64,000 nucleotides of DNA from Geosiphon pyriformis uo1. Lineage: Eukaryota; Fungi; Glomeromycota. This document shows, piece after piece, positions 12,048-61,970 of this stretch. Numbering within the stretch: position 1 is the first letter of the stretch; the number at the start of each line of letters is the position of its first letter. Position numbers and translations under genes: made by a program. A model generated the notes under the pieces. That model was not told the DNA's origin. It did not search any database and saw only the letters and a program-made list of their open reading frames with translations. The stretch lies in NCBI GenBank assembly GCA_016748015.1, contig JAAOMT010000436.1:238703-302702 (forward strand), in the 5' to 3' direction.

Positions 12048-12180
12048 TTTTTTATTATTATCATTTAACAAGCGAGATCCAAACACTACCTAGAACTATA
12101 CATTAAAGAAATGATCTAAACTAGGTGTGAATCATGCACTGTCTACACGTGACCAGCTACTCGAGCCAGTCAGAACAACA

Positions 12181-16862: not shown

Positions 16863-18660
16863 TAAGTAAGGGGTAGAGACACCGAATGCACACTAATACT
16901 ATCCACTTTGGCCGAAAGGCCCAAAACCGTTTCCATTAGACACTTTATGCTGTCTTCCAGCTTAGACACCAAAGACATATCAAAAGACACTGCTTCTGTG
17001 ACATTTCCACCACCAGTGGACACACCTGAACCCTCATTTATCACTACATCTGCCTTTTGATCCTGTGATGAAGGGGTCACCAATGGCTGACATCCAGGGC
17101 TAGACTGGGAAACCATTGGCCCGAATACATTCAACCTCATAGCCAGCTTACTAACTTGCTCTGCGAGGCTGGCAAGACTGTGCTCAAGAGTGGCAAACCT
17201 ATTGTCAACTTTCATCATAACCAGTAGGGACAGCTTTATCTCCGAAGAGGAGCCATTATTCACCAAAACATTCTGACTAGAGAGAGAGAGCGAAGAAGAC
17301 CCGCGAGCAACCTTTGCCCAAGAGAGACCACCAAAAGAGACCGGACGGGCAACTGGAGCCAAGCGTTTAGCATAGATGGTTGCCAGCCTGCTTTTATCTA
17401 TATCCGAGAAAACCCTACGCAGCAAATTACCAGAAAGAAATTTCTCATCAACCACACAACTCAATGATGTGTGACCCAATTTCTCACACTTGGCGCATTT
17501 AGCAGAAATGAGGCGAGACCAGTAGAGATTGGTGTTTCTAAGTACTGGCGTGGTTCCCACAGCAGCATCCAATGATTCAGCAGAGTTGAAGCAAACAACA
17601 GTGCATCTGGCCTGAGCATATGTAACAGAATGATGATCAATGACACATGTTTTCCTACCCACAGATCTAACAAAGTCCCAAATATCATGAGCATTAGTTT
17701 CTATTGGTAATGTGTAGAGCAGCACCCTATGTTGGTCCCTTGCATCCCATGTTTTCTTGTCTGAATCAGCCCTAACCACACGTATAGTATCTTTCCCAAT
17801 TAGAATAGACCACTCAACTGCGACCAAATCAGCCTGATTTGATTGCTCAAATTCCATCACCACCTTCTGCCACAGCCCAATTAATTGCATCTTGATCACC
17901 CTAATAACTCCAAACTCGAATAGTGCAGTACGCACAGTCTCAGCCAATGTCCCAATTGAAATTTCTTTAATAACCACAGCCCAATCTGACTGCCCAGAAG
18001 ATTTTTTGAGATCAGTGTTCACTAGGATCTTCACACTCGCAGTCTTATTAATAGCTTTCATTAGACTCGATTCGAAAGTGAATGTCGCTCTGATAATTTC
18101 TAAGAATTTTGAGGGGGTAGATGCCCCCCCAAAACCATTGATTCCAGAAAACAATTTCCTTACCACCACAAGCTTTTTCTGAGAAGATTTGCCAGCCACC
18201 TTATCCAAGCCAATATCCAACGCGAATGACTTCCTGACTGGAACATTGACCAAATTTTTCATAGGAGGAGGGAGCTCAAGAGGAGCATCCAAGAGAACAC
18301 TATCATTATCACTATTTTTTGAGAAATCAATCTTTCCCAATGGCTTGCCCAATGCCTTTTTGGTTTTAACTTTTGAACTTGTGGGTGTTTAATCATAATC
18401 TCCATCAGCCAGAGCACCACCTTCATTATAATCAAAGCTGGTCTCTTCCACCAGACACTCTTCTTTCATATCAACACTTTCAGACTCAGTAGTGTCCCCA
18501 GTTTCTGAACCCCATGAACAAACACCAGGAACTTCAGCAGCAACTCCTTTATTATCGACACTCTCTGCCAATGCACCTCTCTTCCTCTTTTTCTTTGATG
18601 CAACTGCCTTAAAACCACTCTCAGAACCAGAAACTTTAACAGTCTTTTTTATAACAGCAA
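16862..18660 (-). pseudogene. LINE A ORF1 (gag-like, RRM-like region, CCHC knuckle, coiled coil)
   Basis: 496-aa open segment containing CAKCEKLGHTSLSC; its stop overlaps the ORF2 ATG. Confidence 0.88.
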
Positions 18661-25055: not shown

Positions 25056-25670
25056 TGTTACGAGATGGTTTTCTTGTTATATTTAATTGCTGATATTCCG
25101 TTTTAATTACGATCAGTTTTTCATGAGTTCCTCAATTCTATTTGTGTGATAATATCACTGTTACACTGAAGGCTTTCTTTTTACTGTTGCGATGTAAGTT
25201 ATTCTTCGATTGTTGTGTGTGTTTATGTACTCCTTCTTAGAGGCTGAACTAAAATCTACTCACTGTCTGAGGTCTTCTCTGAGGCTATTTTTGCAATTGC
25301 CTGATGTGTTTCTCTAATCTAGAAACACAGAATGTTAATGGTCTTTAGCACTTTTCTAATTCTTACAATAAAGCTTTTATCAATTAGTAACAACGTGAAT
25401 AATCTTGATCAAGGATTATTCTTCCAAGGGATTCAGTTGATGAATGATAGTTTCATTCAATAAATAATACAAGTAAGTTTCTTAATACTTTGGGTTGTGA
25501 TAATTCAGTTTTAAATATTCTTTTTCATTTCTTTTTGATTTTAAAGGTTTCTTGGGATATTTAATTTGAAAGNNNNNNNNNNNNNNNNNNNNTTATTATT
25601 GTGCTATATTATGATTGAATAGTTTGTATTATTTTTATGATTCTTTTTGCTAAATTCTTAAACTGTAACA
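25056..25670 (-). repeat. Gypsy-1 3' LTR (contains assembly gap 25573-25592)
   Basis: TGTTAC...GTAACA ends and near-identical to 34496-35353. The 20 Ns stand in for roughly 260 bp. Confidence 0.95.
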
Positions 25671-25683
25671 TTATCCCCTCCTT

Positions 25684-26352
25684 TCAAGATTGAGCTCCGT
25701 CGAAATCGAAGTTAATTTCTTCATTAAATTTTAAGTTACTATAGTGGTTCAATACTGTGTTATTAATTTGTTGTTGTAATTCTTGAAATTGTGAGTTGGT
25801 AAGTCATCCAATACTGTTGGTTGTTATTATGTTCATGGTTGGGTCCAACAATAATTTGTGACAGTTTTTAAATGCTTTGAAAATTCTGTAAACTGTTTTT
25901 GAATGGAATGTAGTGTTGGTTTTTCCAATAAAAGGTTCTAATAGTTAGATAGTTGTTTTGTCAAACACTCTAGTTAAGTCTTTTGAGTATAATGTTTGTA
26001 TGTTCAAATGCTTTCCTAGTTGATAATAACAGTAATTAATTAGAAATTTCGTTTTCAAGTTGCTAAATATGTCTGGTGTTAATTCATTTATTTCTATTTC
26101 TTCCATTATTAATGTATTGCCCAATGCTATCTCTAATTTTTCAATAACTTTGCTAATAAATTTGTTGTTATATTTGGCAATATTATATGGTTCGAAATTA
26201 TGTTCTTTTCTTGTTTTTGGATTTTCTATTGTTTTTTTTATGTATGTTATTTTGGAGCTATTAACTGTGATTTCTAGATCGAATTTTAATTATTGTAAGT
26301 TTTCAACTAATTGTTGAGTTATATTGTTGATGTTTTCTGGAATAAGTATCAT
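25684..26352 (-). pseudogene. Gypsy-1 ORF3 (223 codons, 3 in-frame stops), unknown function
   Basis: MILIPENINNIT...NYCYYQLGKHLNIQTLY...VYRIFKAF...IG*LTNSQFQELQQQI...DFDGAQS*; homologous to 39146-39874 and 59308-59964. Confidence 0.8.
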
Positions 26353-26436: not shown

Positions 26437-27816
26437 TTATTTTTTCAAATAATGTTTAATTAAAACTATTGGTTCTAAATCTTGTGGAATTTGTTCTGGT
26501 AGAATTAAAGGTAATTGTGTTCCAATTCTGAGTGTTTTTGTTGTTATTACTGGTTTACTGTAATAGAATTTTAGCCAGTTACCATGTGCTGCTTTTTTTA
26601 ATATTTTATCATCTAGTCTTAGCTTGTATGCTCTATTTCCAAGTATTTCGTGAATATAAAATGGTCTATCCCACTTGTGATCAAATTTTCCACTCCACTG
26701 TTTTTCCATTTTTGTATGATGCAACAATACTTTATCTCCAATTTTGTAGCTAATTATATTATCTGGTAACTGGTTATCATGTCTCACTTTTTGTTGTTCT
26801 TGTGATTGTTCAATATTTTGTGCTGCTTTTCTTTTTTTGTTTTCTAAAGTTCCTATTAATTCGTATGTTCTTCTAAGTAGTGTTTCTTGGAATGTTGCTT
26901 CCGTGATAGTGTCACTTGGATAAGTTGGGATAGTAAGTTCAACTGGTAATGTGGCTTTTTTTCCATAAACTAGTTCAAACAGTGTGAATTGTGTAGTATC
27001 TTGTTTTACTGTTCTATATGCTAGTAGTACTGCTGGTATGAACAAATTCCATTCTTTTTCATGTTCGTTACTAATTTTCGCCAGTGATTTGCATAATGTG
27101 CGATTAAATCTTTCAACTAATCCATTTGTTTGAGGGTGGTATGGTGATGACAGTGGTCGCTTGATTCCAAATTTTTGGCTAAGTTCTTTTAAGGTGCTGT
27201 TTATAAAGTGTGTGCCCTAATCTGATAGCAATTCTTGTGGACATCCATGTCGGCAAATTAAGTTTTCATGTACGAATTGAGCTACGGAAATAGCATTAGC
27301 TGTTTTAATAGCTCTAGCTTCTGGCCATTTGGTGAGATAGTCCATGGCTATTGCAATATAACGGTTGTTTCTTGTTGTTATTGGTAAGGGTCCAATTAAA
27401 TCAATTTCGATTCTGTCAAATGGCTGTCCAACTTTTATTGGTCTTAATAATTCCGTTGTTTTTGCTCCTCCTCTTCATTGGTATGGGTCACAATTTCTTA
27501 TGTATTGGATTATGTCTGAACTCATTTTTGGCCAATAGTAATGGCTAGTTGCACGTTGAATGGTTGCTGTTTTTCCAAAGTGGCCTGAATGAATATCTGA
27601 GTGCATGTTAAATAAGATAGTTTCTTTTTCATCCGTGGTTATAACTCTTAATAGATTATCTGGATTTTGTCGATTCCAGTAATAAAGTATGTGATTTTGG
27701 ATGAAATAGTGTTTTGTTAATTTTTGGAGCTTAATTAGCTTTTTTACTGGCATTTTTTCCTCTATTTGTAGTGTTTCCAAGTATTGGCTGAGGTTTTTGT
27801 AAAGGTGGTTGTTCAT
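26437..27816 (-). pseudogene. Gypsy-1 integrase, separate ORF starting MNNHLYKNLSQYL
   Basis: HHCC-derived zinc domain, DYLTKWPEA, YHPQTNGLVERFNRTL and a GPY/F module (WDRPFYIHE). No chromodomain is evident. Confidence 0.9.
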
Positions 27817-29678
27817 TGTTGTTGTGACAGGTGGGTTGGTGATTTTTATGTGTGTCTCATTCTTGACAAACAGTCAGCATTAGCATTTTTGGTACCTTCT
27901 TTGTATTTGATAATATAATCGTATGATGCTAACGTTTGTGACCATCTGGCGTATTTTCCTTTTAGCGCTTTCTTGTTATTTAACCAGACCAGACCTCTAT
28001 GATCTGTCGTAATCTCAAAGGGTTGGTACCATAAATATGTGTCAAAGTGAACACAACTCCAGACTACTGCTAAGCATTTAAGTTCATGTGTTGCGTAGTT
28101 TTGTTCTGCTGTACTGAGACTTCTGCTGGCATAAGTGATTACATGTTCTCTTCTATTATCATCTTTTTGTGACAGAATGGTTCCAAGTCCAGTTCCAGAG
28201 ACATCTGTGGCCAAAATGAATTTCTTGTTGAAATTCGGATAGATTATTATTGGTGATTCAATGAGCTTTTGTCTAAGGTACTCAAAAGCTTTTTGTTGTG
28301 CTTCAGTCCATTCAAACTTCACATTTTTAGATAGTAGGTAATTAAGGGGTTTGGTGATGTTTGAAAAGTTTTCTACAAAGCGGCGGTAGTAAGATGTGAG
28401 TCCTAAAAAGCTTCTAACTTCTAAAACGTTTCGAGGTACTGGAAAATTTTTCACTTTGTCTATTTTTGATGGATCTGGTTTTATTCCATCTTTTTCAACT
28501 ACGTGTTCTAAAAATGCTAGCTCATTTTTCCCAAAGAAACATTTTTCTAGATTTAGTTTAAGTCCAGCGTGTCTTAATCTCTCAAAAACTTGTTGTAAAT
28601 GTTGGAGATGATCTGTGAATTTTGCCGAGAAAACATTTGTATCATCCAAGTAGACAACAACGGATTGCCACAGGATTCCGAAGTAAATTACGTCCATTAG
28701 TCTTTGGAATGTCGCGGGAGCATTTGTTAATCCAAATGGCATTACATTGAACTCATAGTTGCCATTTTGTGTTGTGAATGCTGTTTTATGCCTGTCCTTT
28801 GGGTCCATTTCCACTTGCCAGTACCCACTAGTCAAGTCCAGTGTAGAAAACCATTTTGCTCCTCCAAAAATGTCGAAGATTTCGTCAATTAATGGTATTG
28901 GGTATGAGTCTTTGGTTGTTTTGCTGTTTAGTTTGTGATAGTTGATGCAAAATCTAATTTTTCTGTTCTTTTTCTTTACTAAAACAACTGGTGAGGACTA
29001 TGGGCTCATTGATGGTTGTATTATTCCTTTTTCCAACATGCTTTGGACTTCTTCTTTGATAGAATTATGCTCCATTGGTGGGACACAGTAAGCGCATTGT
29101 TTTTCAGGTCTGGCGTCTCCAGTGGGGATTTGGTGTTGAACCAAGTTGGTTCTTCCAAATTCACCATTTCTTGAAAATATATCAGAGTATTTTAAAATTA
29201 ATGCTTTTAATTGTCACTGTTGGTCAGGATCCATTGTTCTAATGTTTAATTTGGCCAATTCTTCTGGCATAAATTGATATAATTCTAACGGTTGTTGCCA
29301 ATCTATTGAAGTGAGTTTACAGTAGAGGGCAATTTCTGGGAAATTTAGAATTTCTTGTGGTGTTGACACGTTTTCTAGCTCCGTTCCGAGGTATCCAATG
29401 ATGGTATCTTCCAGAATGTAAACGGGTTCTTCTGTGGTGTTTGTGATAGGAATTTTTATCCATTGAGCTTTATCAGCTGGAATAAAAAGGTTAGTAAGTC
29501 TTATGAGAAACTGTTGGCAAGTTTCTGGGTAGGGCTCAAATATTAGGTTTTTTTCTTTAATTGTCCTTTTTATTCTTATTTCTGATTTTTCATATGGTAG
29601 GAGCATGATAGACCGCTCATTTTTAATTACTTCACCTTTTTCCTCTATTGTTTCAGTGAAATTCGCTTCAATTCCTTT

Positions 29679-30080
29679 TCCTGTCGATCCGAAACCAAAA
29701 GTTCCTCTCATTGTTTGTGACAATTCCTCACAATTTTCCACTGGCACAAATTTTCCAATTTTTACCAATGGTAGAAAAATTGCTTGTGCAATCTTTTCCT
29801 TAGATTCAATGATATAAGGCTTTTTTGAATTGTTCTGTAGCAAAACCATCAAATTTCCAGTGTATCCAGAGTCAATTACTCCTCCTTGAATGCTTATTCC
29901 TTTTTTCGCAAGGCTTGATTGCAACACCATTTGAACTATTATTCCTGGCGGAATTTCAACTGCTATTTTTAGGTCGATTTTGGTGATGCTCTTGGGTGGT
30001 AACATTGTGGATTGGTCTTCCAGATAATGTAGATCAAATCCGGCGTCGGTTGAATGGGCTCTTTCGGGTATTATTTCTAA
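29679..30080 (-). pseudogene. dut: dUTPase domain in Gypsy-1 between protease and RT
   Basis: All five trimeric dUTPase motifs: DAGFDL, QSSLAKKG (RSS), GVIDSGYTG, KIAQ and RGTFGFGSTG. Confidence 0.95.
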
Positions 30081-32711
30081 GTGCCCATTGTCAAAGTATC
30101 GGATGTCAGTCACCTGTTCTAGGTCAGTATAGGCTACAAATTTTTCTGACTTGGGACTGTCAGATGAGTCTTGTTGATTTATTGATTGATTTTGAGACTG
30201 CTGATTCTCAATTTCCATTTTTTTTTCTAAGTCCCTTTCGTCTTGACACTCTTCACAGCACTGATTTTGGCACAGGATGAGACAGTTTTCACAGAGATAA
30301 GTGTTGATTTGGGTGAGGTATTGTTCTTGCTCTTGTCGAGTGGGGCATAGTTGTTGGTAGTAGTCCTGGAATTCGTCCACTGGGTCGAACATGTTGTAGC
30401 TGGCAACTTCATCGGCTACTTCAGCTGACTCTTTCCAACGTCGTATTTCTTCAGTGGTTCCTCCTTTTACTTTGGCTTGTGTGGTGTTGTACAACTCGTC
30501 CTCATCGTGTGGGTAGTGCTGTAGTCTTTTTAACGCTGCTTCAAATGGCGTTCCTCCTTTTATCCAGTCACAGATGAGGATCGTGTATTGGCAAGTTGCG
30601 TCACATGTTCCTCCTCTGCCTGGTAAGTTGTTCTAGTCACACCCTCTTGGTAATGGTTTTCCACAAGCGAGACACGGTTCCTCATCTCATTTTCCATGTC
30701 TTTCTGAGTAACTGTATTTTTCTTTGTTACAATGGTTACAATAGTAGTGGGTGGGGTTTCTTGGGTCTTCGTCTGGTGCGCTGCACGCAGTCATAGACGA
30801 GAGTTTCTTCTTGCAAACCAAGCATTCTAGCTTTGGTCTGCGTCGCTGGTGGTTTCTTTGTGAACTTACCTGGTTCCATTCGGATCTTTCTTCACTGGTC
30901 CATGTTGGTACGGCTGGTAGTCCTGTTCTTTGGTCATCAGCCCAAGAGAGCTGATAGGTTTCGATGGCTGGTAGTGCTGGATTTTCCTCAAATTCAAAGG
31001 TAAGTCTTTGGTTGGCACTGGGTTTTTGGAAGTGGCCACAGGTGGCTGGAATTTTGGCCTGGTGGCCATTATAATTGATCAGAAGCTCTTGGGTGGTCCA
31101 GTCTAGGGTGGCATTGGCTTTTGTTAGCCAGTCATTCCCTACTAACGCTTGATATTGTGTAGCATCCATTACTAATATTTTTATAGGTATTATTATGCCG
31201 TTAATTTCGAAAGGGAATGAGTTGATTTCGCCATAAGGCAGCTTTGTACTTCTATCGGCTGTTATAATTTGGGACATCACGACACGATCAACTTTGAAAC
31301 CCAGTTGGTTTACTAGTTGAAGCGTTACGATGCTTCCAGCGGATCCGCTGTTTAAGATAAGTTTGATTGGGATATTGTTTACAGTGGCTTCCATATACAT
31401 AGCAGTGATTGGGCGTTTTTTGTCCAATGCTACTCCACTAAACATAGCCTCGTTTTCCTCTAATTCAAAAGGAAAAATAGCTGCGAGACTGCTATCTTCG
31501 GTGGCAACTGCTGGTGGTATTGTCTGGCTCAATTTGAAAAAATTCTTGGTTCTGTTTATGTTTCTACTGTCATTGTTTCCGATGATCAGATTTTCTGGTA
31601 TATTAAGATAAGTTTGTTGATAATTTTGGTAGTTTGGATTGGTTTGCTGATTGGTTCTGGCGCAGTTTGGATTCCTCTGGACCAACACATTCTGGTTCCA
31701 CATGGGCTGATTTTGGGCCTTGGGACGCCAATTTGGGTTGGCTATCATGGACTGTTGCTGGTAAGCTCCTTGATTTTGATACGTGGTGGGATATTGGTGT
31801 GGTATTGGCGTGTACTGGTTTCTGGGCATTTGGAGTGGTGCATAGTAATTATTTTCACATGCTTCCTGTATCATTCGCGTTCAATATTGACTAATCAAAT
31901 GTCCTACGCATTTGCAAAAATAGCAGGTGCGCGTTTCTGTTCTGAATTCCTGGCGTGACGAGTGATTATTTTGACTGTCACTGACTTCCTGGCTGCGTCT
32001 TTGGGGTGGTTGGTATGTATTTTTTTTTGGATCCGGGATGAGGTAACTTTCTATTTTCTTAGAGAGTTCCTCCTCTAATCAGGTTACTCTTTTCTCTAAT
32101 GTTTCTGTTTTATTTTCCTCCATTACTATGTTAACTATTTGACTATGATTAGCTTCTTTCTCAGCCGATTCAAGGGCTCTGGCGAGCATAACAGCTTCTG
32201 GTAAGGAATTAGGGTGGGCAGGGCATACTCTTCTTAAAATGCTGCTTTTTAATCCTCTAATAAACTGATTTAAAACCTGAGGATTAGTGTAGTATCTTTG
32301 TTCAATTGCTTCAATCTGATGGCGAATTTGATTGAATCGAGCAAGATATTGGGTGACAGTTTCACCAGTATTTTGCTTGATAGTATTGAATTTGTTCTGT
32401 AGTTGGATTACGGCATTTGGGTTGCTAAAATACTCCAGGAGTGCATTTTTAAATTCGGCAAAGCTCGTGGGTTTTGTTTCTAGGCTTTGATACCACGAGT
32501 TGGCTGTGCCTTTCAGGAAGAAAGGTAATGTTTGAATTGCTCTTTGGTCATTCCAGTTATTTGCCTGGATGGCTTTTTGTGTTTCTCTGAGCTATGTGTG
32601 CATGTCCGTTTCTTCTTCCTCTCCTGAGAAATCTGTTAGTCTTGTAATGTATGGTGTGGTTATTTCGTTGCCGTTTTCTGCTAGTGGGTTTATTGGTCTA
32701 AGAGGAGGTGG

Positions 32712-33579
32712 TGTTATGATTTAAAAATTTAGCAAAAAGAATCATAAAAATAATACAAACTATTCAATCATAATATAACACAGTAATAATCTTAGAAAGG
32801 TAATGATTAACATAGTAGCAAACACCATTTCGCAATAGTGGCAAGCACCAGTTCACAATAGCAGCCAACACCAACTGGTGATAGCAGCAAACACCAGGTT
32901 GAAATATCAAAAAAAAAGTATTTTCTTGTAGAACTACAAACATGTATATATACAGTAGTTTTAATATTGGGAAATAAAAAAATCAAGTAATAAAAATCAT
33001 AACTTATCAAGCAACAGATCCAATTTTATCTAATAAACTCCACTTTAAATCATACTTTCAAATTAAATATCCCAAGAAACCTTTAAAAATCAAAAAGAAA
33101 TGAAAAAGAATATTTAAAACAGAACTATCACAACCCAAAGTATTAAGAAACTTACTTGTATTATTTATTGAATGAAACTATCATTCATCAACTGAATCCC
33201 TTGGAAGAATAATTCTTGATCAAAATTATTCACGTTGTTACTAATTGATAAAAGCTTTATTGTGAGAATTAGAAAAGTGCTAAAGACCATTAACATTCTG
33301 TGTTTCTAGATTAGAGAAATACATCAGGCAATTGCAAGGATAGCCTCAGAGAAGACCCCAGACAGTGGGTAGATTTCAGTTCAGCCTCTGAGAAGGAGTA
33401 CATAAACACACACAACAATTAAGAATTAAAGAATAACTTACATCACAACAGTAAAAAGAAAGCCTTCAGTGTAACAGTGACATTATCACACAAATAGAAT
33501 TGAGGAACTCACAAAAGACTGATTGCAATTAAAGTGGGATATCAGCAATTAAATATAACAAGAAAACCATCCCGTAACA
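32712..33579 (+). repeat. Solo LTR of the Gypsy-1 family inserted in opposite orientation within gag
   Basis: Reverse complement of the Gypsy-1 LTR, TG..CA ends, TSD GTGG (32708-32711 / 33580-33583). Confidence 0.93.
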
Positions 33580-34495: not shown

Positions 34496-35353
34496 TATTA
34501 CAGGATAATTTTCTTGTTATATTTAATTGCTGATATCCCATTTTAATTGCAATCAGTTTTTCGTGAGTTCTTCAATTCTATTTGTGTGATAATGTCACTG
34601 TTACACTGAAGGCTTTCTTTTTACTGTTGCGATGTAAGTTATTCTTCGATTGTTGTGTGTGTTTATGTACTCCTTCTTAGAGGCTGAACTAAAATCTACT
34701 CACTGTCTGAGGTCTTCTCTGAGGCTATCTTTGCAATTGCCTGATGTGTTTCTCTAATCTAGAAACACAGAATGTTAATGGTCTTTAGCACTTTTCTAAT
34801 TCTTACAATAAAGCTTTTATCAATTAGTAACAATGTGAATAATCTTGATCAAGGATTATTCTTCCAAGGGATTCAGTTGATGAATGATAGTTTCATTCAA
34901 TAAATAATACAAGTAAGTTTCTTAATACTTTGGGTTGTGATAATTTAGTTTTAAATATTCTTTTTCATTTCTTTTTGATTTAAAGGTTTCTTGGGATATT
35001 TAATTTGAAAGTATGATTTAAAGTAAAGTTTGTTGGATAAAATTGGATCTATTGCTTGATAAGTTATGATTTTTATTACTTGATTGATTATTTCCCAATA
35101 TTAAAACTACTGTATATATATATGTTTGTAGTTCTACAAGAAAATACTTTCTTTTTGATATTTCAACCTGGTGTTTGCTGCTATCACCAGTTGGTGTTGG
35201 CTGCTATTGTGAACTGGTGCTTGCCACTATAGTGAGATGGTGTTTGCTACTATGTTAATCATTACCTTTCTAAGATTATTACTGTGCTATATTATAATTG
35301 AATAGTTTGTATTATTTTTATGATTCTTTTTGCTAAATTCTTAAACCGTAACA
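34496..35353 (-). repeat. Gypsy-1 5' LTR (858 bp)
   Basis: Direct repeat of 25056-25670 with an adjacent PBS at about 34478-34493. Confidence 0.95.
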
Positions 35354-38300
35354 CTGGTTTGATCTTTCAGTTGCTTTTATTAATATGATGGCTCCCGTCT
35401 CTGTTACATTTTCTTCTGTTGGTGGAGTTGTCCCTCAAAATATTCTGGATTCGATTGAATTTGATTTGACTTGTGGTTGTCTGCTTGATGTTAGTTCTGA
35501 TAGTATTTCAGTATTTACTGATGATTCCTTGGCTGGTTTGAGTACTGTTAGCATGCAGGCTGGTGCAGCCGTTTTCTTTGATGGTGTTGATTTGGGTTTG
35601 GATGTTGTAGTTTCTGGTTTGGTGTCTTCTACTATGGTGGAATTGCAGGCTATTGCTTTGGCTCTTGAGTGTGTTCCTCTTTCCAGTTCTATTTATTTGT
35701 TCTCTAACAGTCAGGCAGCTTTGGATGCATGCAGATCTGAGCTGAGTCTAGTGGTTCTGGACTTTCAAAATCAATGCTGATTGAAATGCCATCATATTTC
35801 TAACTTGATTTGTAATAAGAATTTGGATGTCTCTTGGTTTAAAGTCAAAGGACATTTTGGTGTTGTGGATAATAAGTGGGCAGATGCTCTTGCTGTGGCT
35901 GCTTCAACGTCCGACCTTTTTTTTTCTTCATGTTTGACTGAGTCCTATATTTTGGTGGATGGTATAGCCGTTTCTGGAAATTCTAGATATTTTGTTTGTG
36001 ATATTTTCCATTGTGTGCATCATACTAAATGGGAGATTGGCTCTGGTTCTAAAATCTTGGTCTCCAGTTTGCATAAAAACATAGACTGGTGTAGGTCATC
36101 ATTCATGTGGCATCCTGATAAGCACATGGCCACTGATTTCACTGGTAAACGTTCTGCTGGTGCATGTACTTACTTTATGAAAGCTTTACATTATCAGCTG
36201 CCTATGGCTGTTCATAAATGCCTTTATAGTAGGTCTTATCCCAGCATTTTGTGCCTGTTTTGTGGTGGAGTCAAATTTTCTGATCATATTTTCTCATGTG
36301 GCTTTGATACTGCTATTCACGCCCAGCTGTTGGACACATACGCAGCTATCTGGGGAGCCCTCCCTGGTTTATCTCAGTCATTGTCCCGGCTTATACAACT
36401 TATGCTCTCTTGTGCCTCTGATGCCTTAGTGTGTTCGGCGTTTTGTAAGGGTTTTATGTTCAAACTTTTGTTTTCAGGAAGTGGTTTCAGTTTTTGAAAA
36501 CTCCAAAATTGCTTGTTGTAAGATGGTGGAATTTGTAAGAAATTTCTGTCTTGCTTTTAGAGACGAGGTGTGGTTGGTTTGTGTGAGTCACTGCACTTTG
36601 ATGGAGAAGTGTGGCCTGATTCCTGGTAATGGTTTGATTCCTAATCTGGTGCATGGCCTTCCTTTGGTTTTTTCTGCTGGGGTGATAAAACTGTTGGGTA
36701 TTGTGGAGGCTTTTGGCATTTACTTTGGCTTTCGCACATTCTGTTTATTTTTTTCAGGCATTGGGGATTCTGTATTAGTTGTTATAAATGTTTAGTGTTG
36801 TTCTGATTGGCCTGAGTGGCTGGTCATGTGTAAAAAATGCATGATTCACACCTAGTTTAGATCTCTTATGATGTATTGTTTTAGGTAGTGTTTGGACTTC
36901 ACTCATTAAACAAATAAAAATAAAATAAAAAGTGATTTAATTTTAAGAAAATAACAGTTTTTTTTTGGCTTATATAATTTTTATTATAATAATATGTTTT
37001 TTTCTTTCTTTTAAACATTTTTTGAAAAAAAGATAAATTAATTCTAAAATTGTTAATACTTAAATAGTAATTTCTATTAAAAAATTCTTTATTTTAAATA
37101 TTAATTTTTTAGTAGTTAAAAGTAAATTAACAATGACCAAAGTACAAGTTATCAGAAAAATTTTCTCAAATATGAATGGTTTTAAAAAGTCATTATTTTC
37201 TTAAAATTTAAAGAAATTATCTAATTTATATATTTAAAAAAATTCCAAAACAAGTAGTTTAATTGATTAGTAAGAATAAAATTATAATAAATAATATTAT
37301 AAAATAATTTTTTTTGTATATTAAATATTAATATTTTGTTTTAATTACAATCAATTTTTTATGAATTCCTTGATTTTATTTGTGTAATAATATTAATATT
37401 ATACTAAAAACTATTTTTTTAATATTGTAATATAAGTTATTTCTTAATTTTTAATTGTCATATATATTTATATATATTTTTCTAAAAACTGAATTAAAAT
37501 TTACTTATTGTTTTGGAATTTTTTTTGAAGCTATCTTTGTAATTAACTAATGTGTTTTTTTAATTTAAAAATATAAAATGTTAATATTCATTAATATATT
37601 TTTTTAATTTTTATAATAAAGCTTCTATTTTTTTTTTAACGTTTTACAAGTGAGATCTAAACACTACCTAATACAATACATCATACAAATAATCTAAACT
37701 AGGTGTCAATTATGTTTTTTCTATATGTGATCAGTCACTTAAGCTAATCAGAACAACACTAAGCACCTATATATACTAAAATTGAGTTTTCAATATCCGA
37801 AAAAAATAAACAAGATCTACACAAACTAAAACCAATACCAAGCACTTTAACAATGCCAAGTAATTTAACTATATTAGTAAAAAACATTGAAGACAATCCA
37901 AAAACCAAAACTAATATTGAATCATTATATGGTATTAACTCATTTTTTTCTATAAAGACATGATGTTTAACTTGAACTAATCAAACCTTATTTCTAAAAA
38001 CAAGACAGAAGTTTTGCACAAAATCTACAATTTTTTGATATGCGACTACAAAACTCTTAAAGACAGAAACAGTCTTCTAAAACCAATTACTAAGGACAAA
38101 ACTCTTATAAAAAGCTGTATATACTACAGCATCTAAAGCATAGGATTTCATCAACTAAAACACACATAAAAAAGAATAAAAATAATCAGAAAGCACTCTC
38201 TAAGTATTTGCATATATGTTGTTACTGGAGGTTTTTGGTCTCTTTTCTGTAATGTTGTTGATACTTATTTGCTGTGAATTCACGTTTTCAGGAAGTAGTT

Positions 38301-39145
38301 GAACCTCCAATAACTGAATTTATCTTCAAATTATCTTCTATAATTTGAACTTGCTGGGCTTATGAGTGGAATGGCCAATTCTATGCCAGTTGCTTTATGT
38401 AGTTACATTGTAGTAAACGTCAACTCTTTCCCAGGAATTGCTTGTCTGGAAGCTCACTAAAAATGTGTAGTTACTTTGCTGTGAAAGTCAACTCTTCTAC
38501 AGGAATCTTGTCTGTAGGCTACCCTAATGATTGTAATAAGAAAAGAAACAAAAAATAAAAGAAGTGTAAAAGAAATAAGATTTTATCAAGAGAAATGTTT
38601 TCTATCCAGACCTGGAGTCACTAACAGTTTACTGAAATTGGTAGCTAATCAATTTCGAAATGTTAGTTGGTTTTTGGGGATTTTTCAAGAACAATAATTA
38701 AAAAATTTGGTTTTTCAAATTATTTGGTATTTATTTCTTTTTGTGTGTATAGAAATGGTTCTAAGTGATAAATCTAAAGTAAGATACATTTTCTCGAAGA
38801 GAAAAGCTCTTCTTTTATACAACTTGTTATAACACTATTCTATGAACTTGAACTTTGCTATTTTCTACAATTTTGCTGAACTAAAGATACATTTCGGCGA
38901 ACTATTAGATATTTTGGTGAATTATTAATTATTTCGGCAAATTTCTACAAATTTTGGCAAACTTCTGAATATTACATAGTTTGGGGTATTGCATGATTGA
39001 TCATCGCAATTAGGTTACATTTGTGTTGTGTACAATTTGGGTTATTAATTAAATGATAATTTCAAACATTTTTGCTAATGTAATAAGTGATTATTTGATG
39101 ATAATATATGTTAATTAATGATAGGAATTATAAGATAATTTCATG

Positions 39146-39874
39146 CTAAATAATATCTCTAATTTCATCTGGTAACATAACCTCCTTCTTAAGACTGAGC
39201 TTTGTCAAAGTCCAAGTACTGTCTGTTATTTCCAAATAATAATCCAAAATTATTGAAGAAATTTGGTCTGAAAATTGTTGAAATTTTAGTTCTGTGAGCT
39301 TTTCAATATATTGAATCTTCAAAGGTTGAAAAATTGAGTTTTGCAGTACGTTTTTACAGGTGTGGAATAGGTCATAAAGTCTAAGAGCAGCTCTAAGCCT
39401 GTAGCGACTGTTTGTTGATCCAGCTGTTGTCTTGAATTTGTTGTGGAGTTGTTTCTGAATAGCTTCTTTTGTGAGGTTTGCTGTTGTAAGTTCTAGTTTC
39501 CATTCGTAGAGTGTTTTTTCAATGTGAAAATATCTATAGATTGGAGAATATTCAGTGTTTTCCTCATTAAGACACAGTTGAAGTTTTTGTTGAATTGTAG
39601 TATTTGGTGAAATACTAATCAGAGTGAGCATTAGGTTTTCTCTTAAAGCAAGCTTTAAAAGTTCTGGCAGGTAAATTCCAGTATAACTTCTTGTGTTCTT
39701 TTTATATGGGTGATATTTTTGTGAATTTGGGGCTAAATTTGTAACTACTTCTGTTTGAGTATAATTTATGTGGTTTCCAGTAACAGTAATAGATAATTTA
39801 GGTATTGTTTTTAAAGCTAACATTAGTTTTTGGAATAATTGTTGAATGTTTTGAGGAATAGTTATTATACGCAA
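39146..39874 (-). CDS. Gypsy-2 ORF3 (242 aa open), unknown function, env position
   Basis: Uninterrupted ORF between integrase and PPT, homologous to Gypsy-1 ORF3 (IxIPxNI, LxITV, YFHIEKTL, RLYDLF, IEKLTELKFQ). The start ATG has probably mutated to ATA. Confidence 0.8.
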   Translation of the reverse strand: MRIITIPQNIQQLFQKLMLALKTIPKLSITVTGNHINYTQTEVVTNLAPNSQKYHPYKKNTRSYTGIYLPELLKLALRENLMLTLISISPNTTIQQKLQLCLNEENTEYSPIYRYFHIEKTLYEWKLELTTANLTKEAIQKQLHNKFKTTAGSTNSRYRLRAALRLYDLFHTCKNVLQNSIFQPLKIQYIEKLTELKFQQFSDQISSIILDYYLEITDSTWTLTKLSLKKEVMLPDEIRDII

Positions 39875-39984
39875 TTGAAAAAAAAAATAAAAAATTATTT
39901 TTGGTGTATGGGTTTTTATGTTATTTTTGTTTTGTTTTTGTGAGATTGTTTCTAAATTATAAGAGAATAACTAGTAAAATTAAA

Positions 39985-41370
39985 TTAAGTGTTCAGTTCA
40001 GAAGGTTGTTCAATGACAATTATTGGTTCTAAGTTTCAGGGAATATCTTCGGGACTGACCAAAGGGGAATGTGTACCAATTTGTGGAATTAATGGTTCAG
40101 AATTGTTTCTAAAATGATAGTGTTTCAAATGATCTCCATGTGCAATTTTTGCTAGGATTTTGTCATCAAGTCTTAGCTTGTATGATCCGTTGTCTAGGAC
40201 TTCATGGATAAAGAATGGTCCATCCTATTTATTTTCAAATTTTCCACTCCATTGTTTTTCAGCTTTAGTTCTGTGTAAGAGAACTTTGTTTCCAATTTTA
40301 AATTCATTGGTGACTGAAGGTAATTTGTCATCATGCCATTTTTTTTGTTGAGCTTGGAAGTGTTCAATATGGGTGGCTGCTATTCGTCGTTTTCCTTTCA
40401 ATGTGCTAAGCAGAGTATAGGCTCTTCACTAAAGCATTTCTTGGAAATTGTTTTCATCAATCAGTTGTGCTGGGTATGTTTCCACTGTGAAACTAATTGG
40501 TAATGTTGTCATCCTTCCATAAGTTAAATCAAATGGTGTGTGTTTTGTGATATCTTGTTTTAATGTCCTATATGCTAGTAACACTGATGGAATAAAGAGA
40601 TCCTATTCTTGCTCAAAATCGGTTAAGACTTTGGCTAATGACTCACACAATGTTCTGTTAAAATGTTCTACAAGTCCATTTGTTTGTGGATAGTAGGGTG
40701 AAAACAGAGGTCTTTTGATATTGAATTGTTCATAAATTTCTTGTATTAGGTTGTTCACAAAGTGTGTTTCCTGATCAGATAAAAGTTCAATTGGACATCC
40801 GTGTCTACAAATGATGTCTTCATAGATGAAATTTGCTACTGATTTCACATCTGCTCATTGAATGGCTCTGGCTTCAGGCCATTTAGTAAGATAGTCTATA
40901 GCTACTACAATATAATGGTTTTCTTAAGTGGTAATAGATAGTGGTCTGACTAAATCGATACCAACTCTGTCAAAAGGCTGTCCAACTTTGATTGGATTTA
41001 AAGATTCTGTAGGGCGAGTTTCTCCTCTTCTTTGACAACTATCACAAGATTCAACATATTCGTGAATGTCTTTTCTCATTCGAGGCCAAAAGTAGTATTC
41101 TGGTGTTCTTTGGGTGGTGCTATCTTTTCCGAAGTGTGCTGATGAAGGATCTGAGTGCATGTTGTATAAAATGGTCTCTTTTTCCGGTTCTTGTATTAAT
41201 CTGAGTGGTTTGGTTGGGTTTTTGAAATTTCGATGATAGATAATGTTGTTGTGTAGAAAATATTGTTTGGCTTGTTGTTGTAACCAATGTTTTTTGTCTG
41301 GGGACCAATCTGTTGGGATTGTTAATGTCTCCAAATATTGTTTGAGATTGTTGTAGTTTTCGGGGTTTAT
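39985..41370 (-). pseudogene. Gypsy-2 integrase, separate ORF (ATG>ATA, (M)NPENYNNLKQYL)
   Basis: MH..AHFG..CDSCQRRG, DYLTKWPEA, QTNGLVEHFNRTL and GPFFIHEV motifs. Confidence 0.88.
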
Positions 41371-41420
41371 TGTTTGTTGTTTTGATGCTGTTAATTCAAA
41401 TGGGTGTTGATTTTTGTTTT

Positions 41421-47045: not shown

Positions 47046-50000
47046 GCTGTGTTATTTTTGTGGGAGAGCACCAAATGTTACTGGAGGTTTTTGGTCTTTT
47101 TTCTGTAATGTTCTTAATACTTATTTGCTGTGAATTCACATTTTTAGGAAGTAGTTGAACCTCCAATAACTGAATTTATCTTCAAATTATCTCCTATAAT
47201 TTGAACTTACTGGACTTATGAGTGGAATGGCCCGTACCAGTTGCTTTATGTAGTTATGTTGTAGTAAACGTCAACTCTTTCCTAAGAATTGCTCATCTGA
47301 AAGCTCACTAAAAATGTGTAGTTACTTTGCTGTAAAAGTCAACTCTTCTACAGGAATCTTGTCTGTAGGCTACCCTAATGATTGTAATAAAAAAAGAAAC
47401 GAAAAATAAAAGAAGTATAAAAGAAATAGGATTTTATCAAGGGAAATGTTTTCTATCCAGGCCTGGAGTCACTAACAGTTTACTGAAATTGGTAGCTAAT
47501 CAATTTCGAAATGTTAGTTGGTTTTTGGGGATTTTCCAAGGGCAATAATTAAAAAATTTGGTTTTTCAAATTATTTGGTATTTATTTCTTTTTGTGTGTG
47601 TAGAAATGGTTCTAAGTGATAAATCTAAAGTAAGATACATTTCCTCAAAGAGAGAAGCTTTTCTTTTATACAACTTGTTATAACACTATTCTATGAACTT
47701 GAACTTTGCTATTTTCTACAATTTTGCTGAACTAAAGATACATTTCGGCGAACTATTAGATATTTCAGTGAACTATCAATTATTTTGGCAAATTTCTACA
47801 AATTTCAGTGAACTTCTGAATGTTACATAGTTTGGGGTATTGCATGATTGATCATCGCAATTAGGTTACATTTGTGTTGTATACAATTTGGGTTATTAAT
47901 TAAATGATAATTTCGGACATTTTTGCTAATATAATAAGTGATCATTTGACGATAATATATGCTAATTAATGATAGGAATTATAAAATAATTTCATGCTAA
48001 ATAATATCTCTAATTTTGTCTGGTAACAATGTCTAACAATTAATGCTAAACAAAATTATTGGCCATATAAGAAAAAACATAATCTGAAATCTCAATACCA
48101 CCACAATACAAACATAACACACTAGGATAATGCTTATTATATAAGTATTTTTAAACAGCAATAGGCAGTTAATAGTACAAAGCTTTTATAAAGTATATAT
48201 AAGTATTAGCAGTATATTTACTAGTAAAACCAGTAGCCATATGCAAATCAGAATGCCACACTATAAATAAACCAAGCCAGTTGACATCTAAAAACAAACT
48301 ACTAATTAGAACTTTAAAACCAGAACCAACTTTCCAATGTGTACAATAAATAAACCAAAATATCTTATAAATAAAATATCTAAAGTTATCAGAAACAATA
48401 TTACTCTCAGCCATAATATAATAGTCTTTCAATTAAAGAGGAAGGTACCAAAAAGAAAAAAAAGCAGTGTCAGTAAATGCATCAATACATTTGTTACTTA
48501 AGACACCTGAATGATTCTTCACTTTGTACCAGCTAACATTTAACTTCTTTTCATAAATAACATTTACAATGTGCCAATGTTTAATCCAACACCAATTCTA
48601 AAATTTGAACACTCCAAATCCAACTCTGATTTGCATATATCTAAAGCAGCCTGATTGTCTGTAAAAAGGCAAACCAAATTAAGAAAGAAGACACACTTAA
48701 AAGCCAATGCAATAATCTACAATTCTGCCAAAGTAGAAGACATCAAACTAAACATTCTGACACCCAAACCCAAGTTTATGTCCTTAAAAAAACCATTACA
48801 CTAGTCTTTATGTTAACCTTCTCCAAGTTTTTCAAAGATCCATCTGTGTAGACTAAAAGACTATTAGCATCAACACCCAATAAGCAGTCACAAGCTATTT
48901 CAAATTTACAAGACTCAAAAATATTCAAAAAATCAATAGCATTTAGAAAAAGAGGGCATGTAGAAGAGAAATTCACACTATTAAAAAAGTTAACAGAAAG
49001 CTCAAACTATTTAGGAACAGGGCCATATGAGTCCAATCTCTTTCAATACTTGAAGATTTTCCAATTGAAATAGCACTATTTTTATTGTAAAGCTGGTTTA
49101 TAAAAGCAATATTATACTATTGAAAAAAAGAAAAAAACTTAAAAAATTTAGACTTGCCAAGAACAATTAACATGGAGATTCCACCATAATAACAAAAAAA
49201 ATTGTTTATAAGGTTACTTAAAGACAAATTACACTCAAAAAAAATTTGAATCATAGCTGTTAAAAAATTATTAGAAACACTGACCTTAATACAAACTGGA
49301 AAAACCAAAAGATAAAACAGATACCAAGACAGAACTTGCAAATCATGAGACTTGTATAAGAATAAATGACTTAAAATTTCAACAGAGTTTACAAAACATA
49401 CAACAAAAGCCACTTTGCTTTCAGCCTGAATTTGCTCAAAAGTCTTCAAACCATACAATAAAGAATGGTAGAATGCATTATTAGAAAAATCAAGAGACAG
49501 ACTGAACTTCAATTTTAAGCTTTTGCAAATTAAAGCATCCTATTTATTACATACACCAATAGGAACAAAGCTAAATTGCATTTTGTAGCTAACAATAAGC
49601 TGGAAAACTGCTAACACCAAATACAAAAACTGCTTATTAGAAATGGTCTTTCTTAAAAAAGATTGGCAAAAAACCAGATATCCAAATGTGTTTTAGCCAA
49701 GTTGTGTTTTAACAAACTCTCAATAGATAAAAAAATACCTAAATAGCAATAGAAATAAGTGAATTGCTGATTAATAAAAAAGAGCATTCAACTCTGTAAT
49801 TGATTGGAATGACCACTATTTTGTCATTATTAATAGAAATGTTATTGATCTAAAAAAAATTACTAGCAATATTGAGAATGTATTGGGTAGTAGTTTGGCT
49901 GTTACCAATCTAGATTATATTATTGGCAAAAGCACCAGCAGCAAGAAAAAATATTAGTCTGACTTGAGATTTTGAATGACCAATCTTGGCAATAAAATAA

Positions 50001-58429: not shown

Positions 58430-61400
58430 TATTACAGGTGTTTATTTGGAATCTCAAATCAAATAACAAATTTATAACTTGGTGCTAATAGCTAATATGA
58501 TTAGTATTATCTGAAAGTTTTAGTGATCTGAAGGTTTTGTGGTTAAGTTTTTTGTATAATAGACAGAAATTCAGTTGTGATTTTGTTGTAGCTTTCCAGA
58601 ATTGCAATTCCGTCCAATTTTTTTCTCAGCTTAATGGCCAGTTTTATTCTAACAGTTGTGCTCTTCTGATAAGCTATCCATTAATATATATATAATGTTA
58701 CCCTTATTTTTGGGTCTTTTACCAGACTATCTGTGACATTAATAACTTAGTATTTAATTCTTAATCAGTTAGTCAACAACAAAATAATAAAAAAAAAAAG
58801 AAAAATACAATAGAAAATAAAGAAATAAGCCAAGGCAATAAATATTAGTATTCCATCAATAGCCATAATCAAGAGCTATTGTTTTAGTATGATCAAATAT
58901 GGGTTACTATCAACATGAAATGTTGATAGTAAAGAGTGAATTGAGATAGCAAATAGTTATTTATTGATATTTATAACTTGGAAGATTGCTTAGATGAAAT
59001 TTAAACTAAGAGGTCTGTTTTTTCTACTTTTAGCACTACTACTATATATACATAATTAAGATTCCTTAATTCCTCAATTTTTTACACCAGAAATTCTAGA
59101 ATTCCTGCAATTCTGCAATTTCTTTAAGAAGAATCCCAGAATTCTGGAATCCTGTGATTTCTTATATGAGAATTCTAAAATTTCTGGAATCCTGCAATTC
59201 TTTTAAGAAGAATTCTGGAATTCTACATTTACTACATCTACTTCTGATTGGCTAATTTATATACTAATATACTTTTTATATTCTATGAATAACATTATTT
59301 CTTCTTTTTAATATTGAACTTTGTTGAAATCTTTTAATTCTAACTCTCCATTTTTGAGCATTTCTTGAACTTTTTTTTTGAAAATTACTTGTGTTATCTT
59401 GTTCTGTAATTCTTTAATTGAGCATTGGTTATTTTTCTCATTTGGTTAATGGCAATAGTATCTATTGTTAGATTGAGTAAAATTTCTGGTCAGTCTTGAA
59501 ATTCAACTTGTAATTAATAAATGGCTTATATTTATGTAGTTAGATTGTTCTTTTCCACAAATTGTTTAAGTTGTTGTAATATTTCTGGATCGAATAATCA
59601 TTTTGTTTTATCCATATATAAGTTCTGAATATTTAAGTATTGTCCCAAGTGGAAATAACAAAAGTTCTTTGGAAGTTCTTATATCCACTACTTCCAAGTT
59701 TTTTTGGTCAATTTTTAATATGGAGTGACTCTTGTTGGCTCTTCTATTGTCAATTTTATTTTTAAGATTATTTTGTTGATAATATTCTCTGGTTTCTGTA
59801 CTTTGTATGAGGTTATCTTTCTGGTATCTTTGTATCAAATGGTTTGTTGGTTGATAATAATTTCTATATTTTGTTGTTGAATCAGTTAGAAGAGTTATTG
59901 TGCTAGCAAATAAATATCATCAGTAATTTTCATTTTTTCTGATATCTTCTGTTATGTCTATCACGTTTTTATATATTTTTTTGGTCAATTAATTTGATGT
60001 GTTTATGTCGATAATGATGATTGGTTCTAGATCTCATGGAATTTTATCTGGTCAGACTAGTATTTATTGTATTCTCAATTGTAGAATATTATTGGTAGAT
60101 AATAATACTATATGGTAATATGGTTTTAGTCAATTATTATGTGCTGCTTTGATTAAAATTTTGTTGTCCCATCTTAATTTATAAGCTCCATTTTCTAGAA
60201 TTTTTTCAATGTGAAATGGTTTATTCTATTTGGGATCAAATTTTCTATTCCATTGTTTTTCCACTTTGGTATAATGTAAAAGTACTTTGTTTTCAATCTT
60301 AAATTCAACTGGTTTATTTGGTAATTGGTTATCATGTCTATTTTTTTGTTTTTTTGTGACTTCTGGATTTTATCAGCTGCTCTTTGCTGTTTGTTTTCTA
60401 GTGTTTCTATTAGGTTATATGTTCTTTTCAACAATGTTTCTTGAAAATTTTCTTCTGTTATTGGTTTTGTTGGATATGTTTTGACTTCTATTTTAACTGG
60501 TACTGTTGCTGTTTTACCATATACTAATTCAAATAATGTTGTTTGTATAGTGTCTTGCTTCATTGTCCAATAAGCAAATAATACTAATGGTATAAATAAA
60601 TCTTATTTATTCTGGTTTTTTTGGCTGATCTTGGCTATTGTTTTATATAGTATTCTGTTAAACTTTTCAATTAACTCATTTGTTTATAAATGATATGATA
60701 ATGATAATGGTCTTTTTATCCCAAATCTTTGACTTAATTCTACCAATGTTCTATTCACAAAGTGAATTTCTTGATCTGATAATAATTTTTTTAAACATCT
60801 GTGTTAACAGATCAAATCTTGATAAACAAATTCAGCAACAGATTCTGCATTTGCTCTTTGAATGGCTTTTGCTTCTAACCACTTAGTAAAATAGTCTATG
60901 ACTATTGCAATATAGCTGTTTTCTTTGCTGGTTATTGTTAATAATTCAACTAAGTTAATTCCAATGTAATCAAATAGTTATCCCACTTTGATTGATTTTA
61001 ATGGCTCATTGGGTTTTGTTCCTCTTCTTTTCTGACAAGCATCACAATTTTGAACATATTAGATGATATTTGAATACATAGATGGCCAATAATATTTTTT
61101 TCTGGTTTTTCTATGGTTGCTTCTTTATAGAAATGTCCTGCTGTCGAATTTAAGAACATATTGAATAGTATTGTTTCTTTTTCTGGCTCCATAATTACTT
61201 TGGTTGGTTGATTTGGATCTCTTCTATTCTTCTAGTAAAGTATATTTTGATGAGTGATAAAATATTTTGATTGTTGTTTTATGTTGTTTTGTTCTTTTTA
61301 AGATAATTTTTTCTTGAACTGTTGGGTATTTATATAATACTGAAATTGTTAATATTTTTGTGTGTTCATTTTTTGTTATATTTTTGTGTTGCAAAGTTCA

Positions 61401-61970
61401 AATTTTGTTATAATTTGGGTTAAAATGTTTAGATTTGTTTTATTCATAACAATTTATTGGCATTTATATTCTTTTTTCTCTTTTTATAGTGTACTGTAAA
61501 AGTGTATAATAATAGTGCTATTTTTCATCTTGCATGTTAATTGTCTTCAAATTCTTGTTTTTGGATTAAAGTCAATCTTTTGTGATCAGTATGCACTTCA
61601 AATTTCTGGCTTAAGTATTTTTTTCATTTCATAACTGTCCAATAAATTGCTAAGTGTTCTAATGCCAGTATTTTATAATTTTTTTCAGCTGGTATTAAGT
61701 TTTGGCTGACATATGCTATTGAATATTCTTTTCCATCTGGTTTTTTTTGTGATAGTATTGCTCTCAATGCTTTGATTTGATGCATCAATAGTAATGATAA
61801 ATAATTTGCTATGATCTGAATAGATTAGTACTGGAGTCTGAATAAGCTTTTTTCTTAATGTGTTAAAAGCTTTTTGTTGTATTTTAGTTCATTCATATTT
61901 AATATTTTTGGTTTGTAGATAATACAATGATTGAGCCAGTTTGAAAAAGTTTTTGATAAAATGATAATAG
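58430..61970 (-). mobile_element. Element E: 3' part of a degraded Gypsy (3' LTR 58430-59294, ORF3 ~59308-59964, integrase 59989-61369, RNase H/RT end), interrupted by F
   Basis: LTR related to D, PPT at 59295-59310, and integrase and RNase H motifs with many stops. Confidence 0.85.

Follow-up and report, generated by a model that had tools for sequence, protein, structure and literature searches.

A Ty3/gypsy lineage encoding integrase in a separate open reading frame behind the Gag-Pol stop, and candidate routes to its translation

We analyzed a 64,000-nucleotide (nt) stretch of the Geosiphon pyriformis uo1 genome (contig JAAOMT010000436.1, positions 238,703 to 302,702, forward strand; hereafter the window), in which three related long terminal repeat (LTR) retrotransposons, termed elements B, D, and E, carry an unusual junction between RNase H and integrase (IN). 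Element D spans 48028 to 38220 and has the same plan as B; element E is heavily decayed. The hallmarks that these elements have in common with Ty3/gypsy (Metaviridae) were present, namely direct LTRs with TG...CA ends, a primer-binding site (identified by its location and its initial TGG), a polypurine tract, and a target-site duplication. The order Gag, protease, reverse transcriptase (RT), RNase H, and integrase is likewise shared, and it was confirmed, together with Ty3-type RT and RNase H and an HHCC/DDE integrase, by Pfam, alignment, and RT trees. In element B, Pfam domains followed the order protease, dUTPase, RT, RNase H, integrase zinc domain, and integrase core, and its integrase comprised a zinc-binding domain, a DDE core, and an SH3-like C-terminus. 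Judged from these features, descent from the Metaviridae is not in doubt, and the location of IN outside Pol is a variant trait. In the textbook Ty3/gypsy layout IN lies within Pol, whereas here it lies outside Pol and is followed by a conserved third open reading frame (ORF3). The coordinates of the features are collected in Table 1.

A preliminary description of the window had located a Pol stop four codons after RNase H in all three elements, followed by a spacer and an IN start in the −1 frame. The coordinates, stops, spacers, and starts given there for B, D, and E were all correct; the spacers (29, 50, and 59 nt, respectively) are A/C-rich and all 2 mod 3. The same description took the IN frame to be open upstream across the stop except for one probable CAA>TAA in E; the frame runs 25 nt back into RNase H coding sequence in B and D and closes 6 nt before the ATG in E. 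Similarly, a slippery site was indeed absent in frame from the 90 nt before the stop in B and D, but the decayed element E has one A-run heptamer 46 nt upstream. In element B, 1,621 Gag-Pol codons share one frame with 7 internal stops and 460 IN codons share another with 2, and neither stretch contains a frameshift. In element D, 1,860 Gag-Pol codons carry 16 internal stops and IN carries 7, with the frames kept as in B. The junction was the sole frame change from the examined Gag-Pol stretch to the end of IN in both elements. Because B and D otherwise carry stops but no frameshift, the frame change at the junction falls outside general indel decay. The two elements showed 59% identity in IN and also in RT and are therefore different families, so that the shared stop is old but was inherited once. 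The earlier argument that random decay would not place the same stop three times was thus right in that the stops are not decay, but they were inherited by descent and do not represent three independent events. The junction region of element B was predicted to be unstructured (minimum free energy −1.0), folding of the window junction segments gave weak z-scores only, and the window spacers are AUG-free and unstructured in prediction. Contigs of sequencing run X1, possibly the window's own source, placed 1,377 pieces on the junction region; among the 40 of 48 variant rows listed for these contigs, there was no variant of the stop or the ATG and no indel.

The lineage-wide survey covered the best 80 of 572 metagenome loci, picked by integrase similarity alone, of which 54 hold both the RNase H end and the integrase (junction loci). 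As in 3 of 3 window elements, a Pol stop was present in 54 of 54 junction loci, and an ATG stood at the aligned IN start in 52 of them, which supports the earlier proposal that IN is made apart from Pol. It had also been considered that the youngest copies might have RNase H and IN fused in one frame; in-frame fusion was observed in 0 of the 54 junction loci. In neither these loci nor the window elements is integrase the C-terminal part of the Pol polyprotein, as is characteristic of Ty3/gypsy. Pol and IN frames were intact to the contig limits in 40 of 52 loci, including the near-complete L008, L019, and L050. Among the best 120 long RT-RNase H homologs, 111 were classed (9 were dropped for short alignment): 41 were fused to integrase, 37 ended within 35 residues past RNase H, 32 had a longer tail without an integrase match, and 1 had integrase first. 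In a FastTree phylogeny, the window element belonged to a group of 89 rows (support 85) with a single fused row, a gene model without the LSR motif of the RNase H end. Many intact Pol proteins of 700–1,630 aa finish 1–12 residues past LSR, and stand-alone integrases of 381–453 aa made up the best 120 near-length homologs, a search that is unable to show fused forms, so that the DNA loci provide the better test. A scan of viral contigs yielded only distant integrases (24 loci, 21–35% over longer matches), which were not used. From these comparisons we conclude that the split is a real, selected, lineage-wide feature and not decay.

If the stop were a product of decay, active copies would be fused. 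All three window copies are dead, as this would have it, and three single-ORF fused proteins share the RT clade; however, the intact Pol and IN frames of the 40 loci, the many intact Pol proteins ending just past LSR, and the clean 4-bp target duplications at B, D, and a solo LTR led us to reject this explanation, which we regard as barely credible. The duplications are consistent with integration by a working family integrase. The fused proteins, P0243, P0248, and P0250, came from a search for longer integrase-bearing proteins. In P0243 and P0250, LSR is followed by about ten residues and then by an N-terminal helix identical in kind to that of the free integrases, and P0248 combines domains for RT, RNase H, and integrase in a single protein. 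All three lie inside the 31-row clade (SH-aLRT 99) that contains the split elements, in an RT tree made after dropping 12 long-branch, redundant, or gene-model rows, and as either ancestral or re-fused members they count against a split throughout the lineage. By this comparison, the stop and the new AUG occupy the short-linker position of the fused forms. Three NCBI gene models (P0100, P0242, and P0244) were rejected as fused forms; they are without the LSR motif and were read as likely intron-bridged predictions. P0246, another gene model, has both LSR and a long linker.

Next, we examined the integrase start codon. An ATG occupied the aligned start in 72 of 80 loci, four of the others being cut by the contig end and four having none. 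A purine at −3 was found in 64 and a G at +4 in 61 of these 72 ATGs, compared with background fractions of 0.56 and 0.27 among 6,395 other ATGs of the same loci. Residue 2 of IN was Asp, Glu, or Asn in 72/72; proteins starting with Met-Asp, Met-Glu, or Met-Asn are NatB acetylation substrates. In the stand-alone integrases, Met fell in one alignment column in 104 of 120 (manual count). The aligned ATG, its strong context, the lack of a fixed frame, and the closed IN frames (below) therefore indicate that IN has its own start. On these sequence data, it is almost certain that the integrase ORF of this Ty3/gypsy lineage stands apart from Gag-Pol and begins at a conserved AUG of its own past the Gag-Pol stop.

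The spacers ranged from −20 to +943 nt and fell into all three frames (22, 20, and 10 loci; n = 52), and the IN frame was closed at or after the Pol stop in 38 of the 52 loci and in 28 of the 40 intact ones. Since all three frames are used and the IN frame is mostly closed, frameshifting is excluded as the mechanism of the lineage, and the non-canonical frameshifting suggested in the preliminary description found no support. The −1 frame itself does not generalise either: L001, the nearest outside relative of B and D, has an in-frame spacer of 24 nt (0 mod 3). The hallmarks of a programmed −1 frameshift, a conserved −1 overlap with a slippery heptamer, were not observed. A Pol-IN fusion made by such a frameshift or by stop read-through would accord with the 25-nt overlap of the IN frame with RNase H coding sequence in B and D, the shared 2 mod 3 spacers of the window, and the existence of fused relatives. 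However, the frame counts, the other frame of L001, and the absence of an in-frame slippery heptamer from B and D speak against it, and the invariant Met in strong context would be needless. Moreover, apparent recoding between protease and RT keeps an invariant TGA-CTA (7/7 inspected), whereas the RNase H-IN junction has no such signal. For the lineage, fusion by frameshift or read-through is already largely refuted, and we consider it extremely improbable; fusion and decay taken together are very improbable.

An in-frame TGA with CTA directly after it separates protease from RT in L010 (5039–5044), L012, L016, L017, L028, L055, and L059, all seven loci inspected, which belong to one sublineage. 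TGA-CTA is a read-through context, and it likely marks stop read-through at an unusual position.

Of the three routes named in the preliminary description (reinitiation, splicing, and frameshifting), reinitiation appears to fit best, and we give an even chance to a route in which ribosomes reinitiate past the Pol stop on the full-length genomic RNA and so produce IN. Ribosomes would terminate at this stop and reinitiate at the next AUG of the same full-length RNA, the post-termination 40S subunits staying on the RNA and either reinitiating at an overlapping AUG or scanning 25–100 nt. The output of IN would then be a fraction of that of Gag-Pol, whose single frame would give Gag and RT at 1:1. 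IN would enter the particle or reach the cDNA through binding of RNA or of Gag/Pol, not through fusion.

As observed, start and stop overlapped or lay at most 2 nt apart in 12 of 52 loci, among them loci with TAATG (L032 and L041) and ATGA (L049), and in 9 of the 12 overlap-type loci no AUG lay closer to the stop than that of IN. Their AUG-free leaders measured 7–48 nt, a length that would hardly accommodate a capped subgenomic leader. In 40 of 52 loci, the distance from the stop to the IN AUG was between −20 and +100 nt. Where Pol has gained a tail of 236–315 residues (L008, L031, L043, L050, L067, L069, and L077), the spacers still measured 62–93 nt. In 29 spacers of 10–150 nt, ATG occurred 3 times, against a mean of 20.3 and a minimum of 9 in 300 shuffles. 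Reinitiation after long ORFs is described, in the cited passages, for the fungal viruses CHV1 and HvV190S and for the non-LTR elements SART1 and LINE-1, the last with a 63-nt spacer (PMC10275272, PMC5972666). The layout of these systems and of caliciviruses, which use a termination upstream ribosome-binding site (TURBS), is similar to the present one in that a downstream ORF lies behind a long ORF; UAAUG and AUGA overlaps occur in some relatives here, and spacer lengths are LINE-1-like. In contrast to the viral reinitiation systems, a TURBS motif is essentially absent here, and most spacers exceed the 30-nt limit. The same passages report termination-reinitiation for no LTR retrotransposon (PMC10275272, PMC5972666).

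Several observations weigh against reinitiation. UGGGA (TGGGA in DNA) is the calicivirus TURBS motif; upstream of the stop, TGGGA was limited to 2 of 52 loci and was absent from all three window elements. A start-stop distance of approximately 20–30 nt is required for TURBS-type reinitiation, according to the cited section (PMC10275272); B (29 nt) and 14 of 52 loci are inside this distance, whereas D, E, and the other 38 loci exceed 30 nt. Spacers were longer than 100 nt in 12 of 52 loci; most of these spacers contain AUGs, and at least two of the spacers are decayed Pol tails. Another AUG lay nearer the stop in L010, L012, and L059. The AUG-free zone often reached 60–100 nt into RNase H coding sequence (median 102 nt, compared with 31 nt in the background), which also fits a capped subgenomic RNA. 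GTA was as depleted from the spacers as ATG (2 versus 15.0), so the depletion is not AUG-specific, and the closeness of stop and start could reflect mere genome compaction. Furthermore, the 52 loci reduce to 46 distinct ones at 90% identity and are related by descent, and their counts are not independent.

The main rival to reinitiation is that IN, and ORF3 with it, is translated from a shorter capped mRNA that starts at an internal promoter near the end of RNase H. The AUG context is strong and of the scanning type. One sublineage has AUG-free leaders of 150–185 nt, and its pre-stop Asn codon avoids making an AUG in 13 of 13 loci, which form one clade and are not independent. Long AUG-containing spacers occur in another sublineage (L016, L020, L028, L040, L042, L048, and L055), several of them with a candidate TATA-like word about 40 nt before the AUG (by eye). 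However, the overlap-type loci have AUGs 7–48 nt upstream, L010 and L012 have an upstream AUG in good context 7 nt before the IN AUG, and the IN AUG follows the stop even where Pol gains a long tail. Overall, we regard a subgenomic promoter as possible, if rather unlikely, and sublineages may differ in their route to IN. By eye, L002, L004–L007, L009, L011, L013–L015, L018, L023, and L030, with spacers of 74–98 nt, had in common short repeated words containing GAC/GAT at similar spacing in the 60 nt before the IN ATG; these are possibly protein-binding sites.

A spliced subgenomic mRNA could also place the IN AUG first, as in foamy-virus Pol or retroviral env. The foamy virus offers a precedent, since according to the cited part of its description a spliced mRNA encodes Pol and the protein is packaged separately from Gag (PMC3705302), and a loose branch-plus-YAG motif was found in 25 of 54 junction loci, against 18.4 expected. 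However, YAG occurred in the AUG-free leader in 46 of 54 loci (45.9 expected) and was missing altogether in 8, the strict CTRAY-plus-YAG motif occurred in 10 (8.5 expected), and the spacers of window elements B and E have no AG. The donor word GTAAG is avoided on the sense strand (99, compared with 285 on the other strand). The acceptor-enrichment test thus gave no support to the splicing option of the preliminary description, and a conserved donor and acceptor around the stop (Ogre-type) was not found, most short spacers being without GT. No sense-strand intron ends were seen among the listed joints of the X2 and X3 contigs, whose cover is thin and does not include the junction unspliced, so this is not evidence against splicing. 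Altogether, splicing is improbable as the route to IN. Contigs of run X2, which is not on record as RNA, bridge plus-strand GT..AG gaps at 27831–27987, approximately 28021–28175, and several places from 30.6 to 35.1 kb; these joints likely represent multiply spliced antisense transcripts of the B family, one of them across the RNase H-integrase junction.

A stem-bulge-stem RNA of about 40 nt was present shortly upstream of the IN AUG in 27 of 80 loci (e.g., L031:4464–4500), mostly in the sublineage whose Pol has a long Cys/His-containing C-terminal tail. In an alignment of 22 sequences, 9 of 13 pairs were changed on both sides, although kinship inflates such counts; the covariation score was reached by 0 of 500 shuffles, and slid controls came nowhere near it. 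Rfam gave no match in six loci scanned, four of them with the motif, and a window search with the RNA model was negative up to E = 1. As the window elements lack it, the motif cannot be the general mechanism. It could nevertheless recruit ribosomes internally, as an internal ribosome entry site would, or gate initiation independently of upstream translation, and its position a few to about 30 nt before the IN AUG, together with the covariation, would suit this role. Its absence from the window and from most short-tail loci and its size, small for an entry site, argue to the contrary, and a role in protein binding or in packaging is just as possible. The chance that internal entry explains IN translation is therefore slim.

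ORF3, of 130–230 codons, follows IN in many loci (e.g., L075:5146–5589) and in B and D, and the elements are therefore tricistronic in layout. When 20 sequences were compared all against all, every ORF3 copy except that of L013 fell into a single connected family of homologs; ORF3 was not found within 400 nt of IN in 13 of 29 testable loci. Its model was all-helical and confident (predicted local distance difference test, 94). The core family matched no Pfam family at the cut-off, searches against PDB sequences gave weak matches only (best E 0.011), recognition in the ESM Atlas was below threshold, and Foldseek gave no match to PDB or viral libraries at E up to 0.001. Whatever serves IN may also serve ORF3. 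A small conserved basic ORF of about 60 codons was observed between Pol and IN in L016, L042, and L055, and it overlaps the IN start by 28 nt in the latter two.

To our knowledge, caulimoviruses have no integrase. Cauliflower mosaic virus, with its TAV-activated polycistronic translation, resembles the present elements in being reverse-transcribing with several ORFs on one RNA, as outlined in part of PMC10275272. A TAV-like transactivator role for ORF3 would be speculation; no Pfam, PDB, or viral fold likeness was detected. As for packaging, uptake of free IN may be RNA-bridged or Gag-bound. The enzyme Pol of foamy viruses, too, is synthesized separately from Gag and has to enter the particle by a route of its own, but in the cited part of that work the whole Pol comes from a spliced mRNA, whereas here IN alone is detached (PMC3705302). 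A broader proposal joins these elements: a tricistronic genomic RNA (Gag-Pol, integrase, and ORF3), on which TURBS-independent reinitiation would work after an ORF of 1,300–1,800 codons and across up to 100 nt; a novel-fold ORF3 protein that would act as transactivator or packaging adaptor; and the stem-bulge-stem as an operator bound by integrase or the Pol tail, which would limit IN synthesis and carry IN into the particle in cis. In its entirety, we consider this proposal doubtful.

Other multi-ORF elements are divided at Gag or Gag-protease and not between RNase H and IN, in the portions of the sources cited (PMC6317226, PMC5911963, PMC2582038). In the plant elements Ogre and Bianca, the polyprotein is also divided into ORFs by a non-coding spacer, but the split precedes RT, and the Ogre spacer is a spliced intron that restores the polyprotein, as given in excerpts of PMC6317226. 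Unlike in Ogre and Bianca, the split here sets apart IN, which starts at a conserved AUG of its own, and the junction showed no acceptor signal. Searches of an open-access library, which omits Repbase-type entries and most subscription journals, found no description of a detached Ty3/gypsy integrase, and none appeared in passages of PMC5006619, PMC4427930, PMC13524379, PMC3248453, PMC11943222, PMC11952901, and bioRxiv 2021.03.30.436303.

A large lineage that has intact members and encodes integrase on its own shows that fusion to Pol is dispensable. In LTR retrotransposons and orthoretroviruses, fusion to Pol (and Gag) both doses and packages integrase. The split raises two questions, namely by what route eukaryotic ribosomes arrive at an ORF preceded by a very long one, and by what means integrase locates its cDNA. 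The series of junctions (overlap, short spacer, structured spacer, and fused) offers a natural allelic series for reinitiation. Gene callers either span the junction with apparent introns or report the integrases as host genes without any relation to the element; therefore, elements of this kind in mycorrhizal genomes have likely been wrongly annotated or counted as dead. Among the homologs of the element proteins within the clade, the named ones came from Rhizophagus and Cetraspora.

Table 1. Features of elements B, D, and E in the window (window coordinates).
Feature	Position	Strand	Remarks
Element B 5' LTR	34496..35353	(-)	97% identical to 3' LTR over 515 bp
Element B target-site duplication	both flanks of B		4 bp, CCAG
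Solo LTR of B's own family	32712..33579	(+)	inside B gag, in opposite orientation; own 4-bp duplication
Element B Gag-protease-dUTPase-RT-RNase H, one frame	27846..32708	(-)	Pfam, translation; 7 internal decay stops
Element B Pol stop TAA	27846..27848	(-)	four codons past RNase H LSR (CLSR-MRHT)
Element B spacer, 29 nt, A/C-rich	27817..27845	(-)	no AUG, no AG
Element B stand-alone integrase ORF	26437..27816	(-)	own ATG, A at -3; 2 internal decay stops
Element B ORF3, ~222 codons, decayed	25684..26352	(-)	phmmer match to L001 ORF3, E 3e-12, 20-sequence set
Element B polypurine tract	25671..25683	(-)	
Element B 3' LTR	25056..25670	(-)	includes 20-N scaffold gap 25573-25592
Element D 5' LTR	47076..48028	(-)	4-bp duplication ACAT; 94% identical to 3' LTR
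Element D Pol stop TAA	41421..41423	(-)	after CLSR-MRQD
Element D spacer, 50 nt, AUG-free	41371..41420	(-)	
Element D integrase ORF, decayed	39985..41370	(-)	start codon ATA; 7 internal stops
Element D ORF3 (start approximate)	39146..39889	(-)	
Element D 3' LTR	38220..39177	(-)	
Element E junction	61367..61431	(-)	KLL*-IKQI, TAA 61431-61429, 59-nt spacer, ATG 61369

The dUTPase domain lies between protease and RT on the minus strand in B (approximately 29700–30070) and D (approximately 43260–43650), preceded in both by a Cys-rich insert; in proteins P0066 and P0115, dUTPase sits after RNase H instead. Elsewhere in the window, an RT-encoding, likely non-LTR element was present in several copies (12046–17187, 21502–25056 with 35354–36930, and 48065–52550), into one of which element B was apparently inserted. 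A ribosomal protein S3 gene with introns and a low-complexity C-terminal extension was located at approximately 8470–9920 on the minus strand, and a tandem array with a period of about 87 nt was observed at 54860–55402, within a larger duplicated segment.

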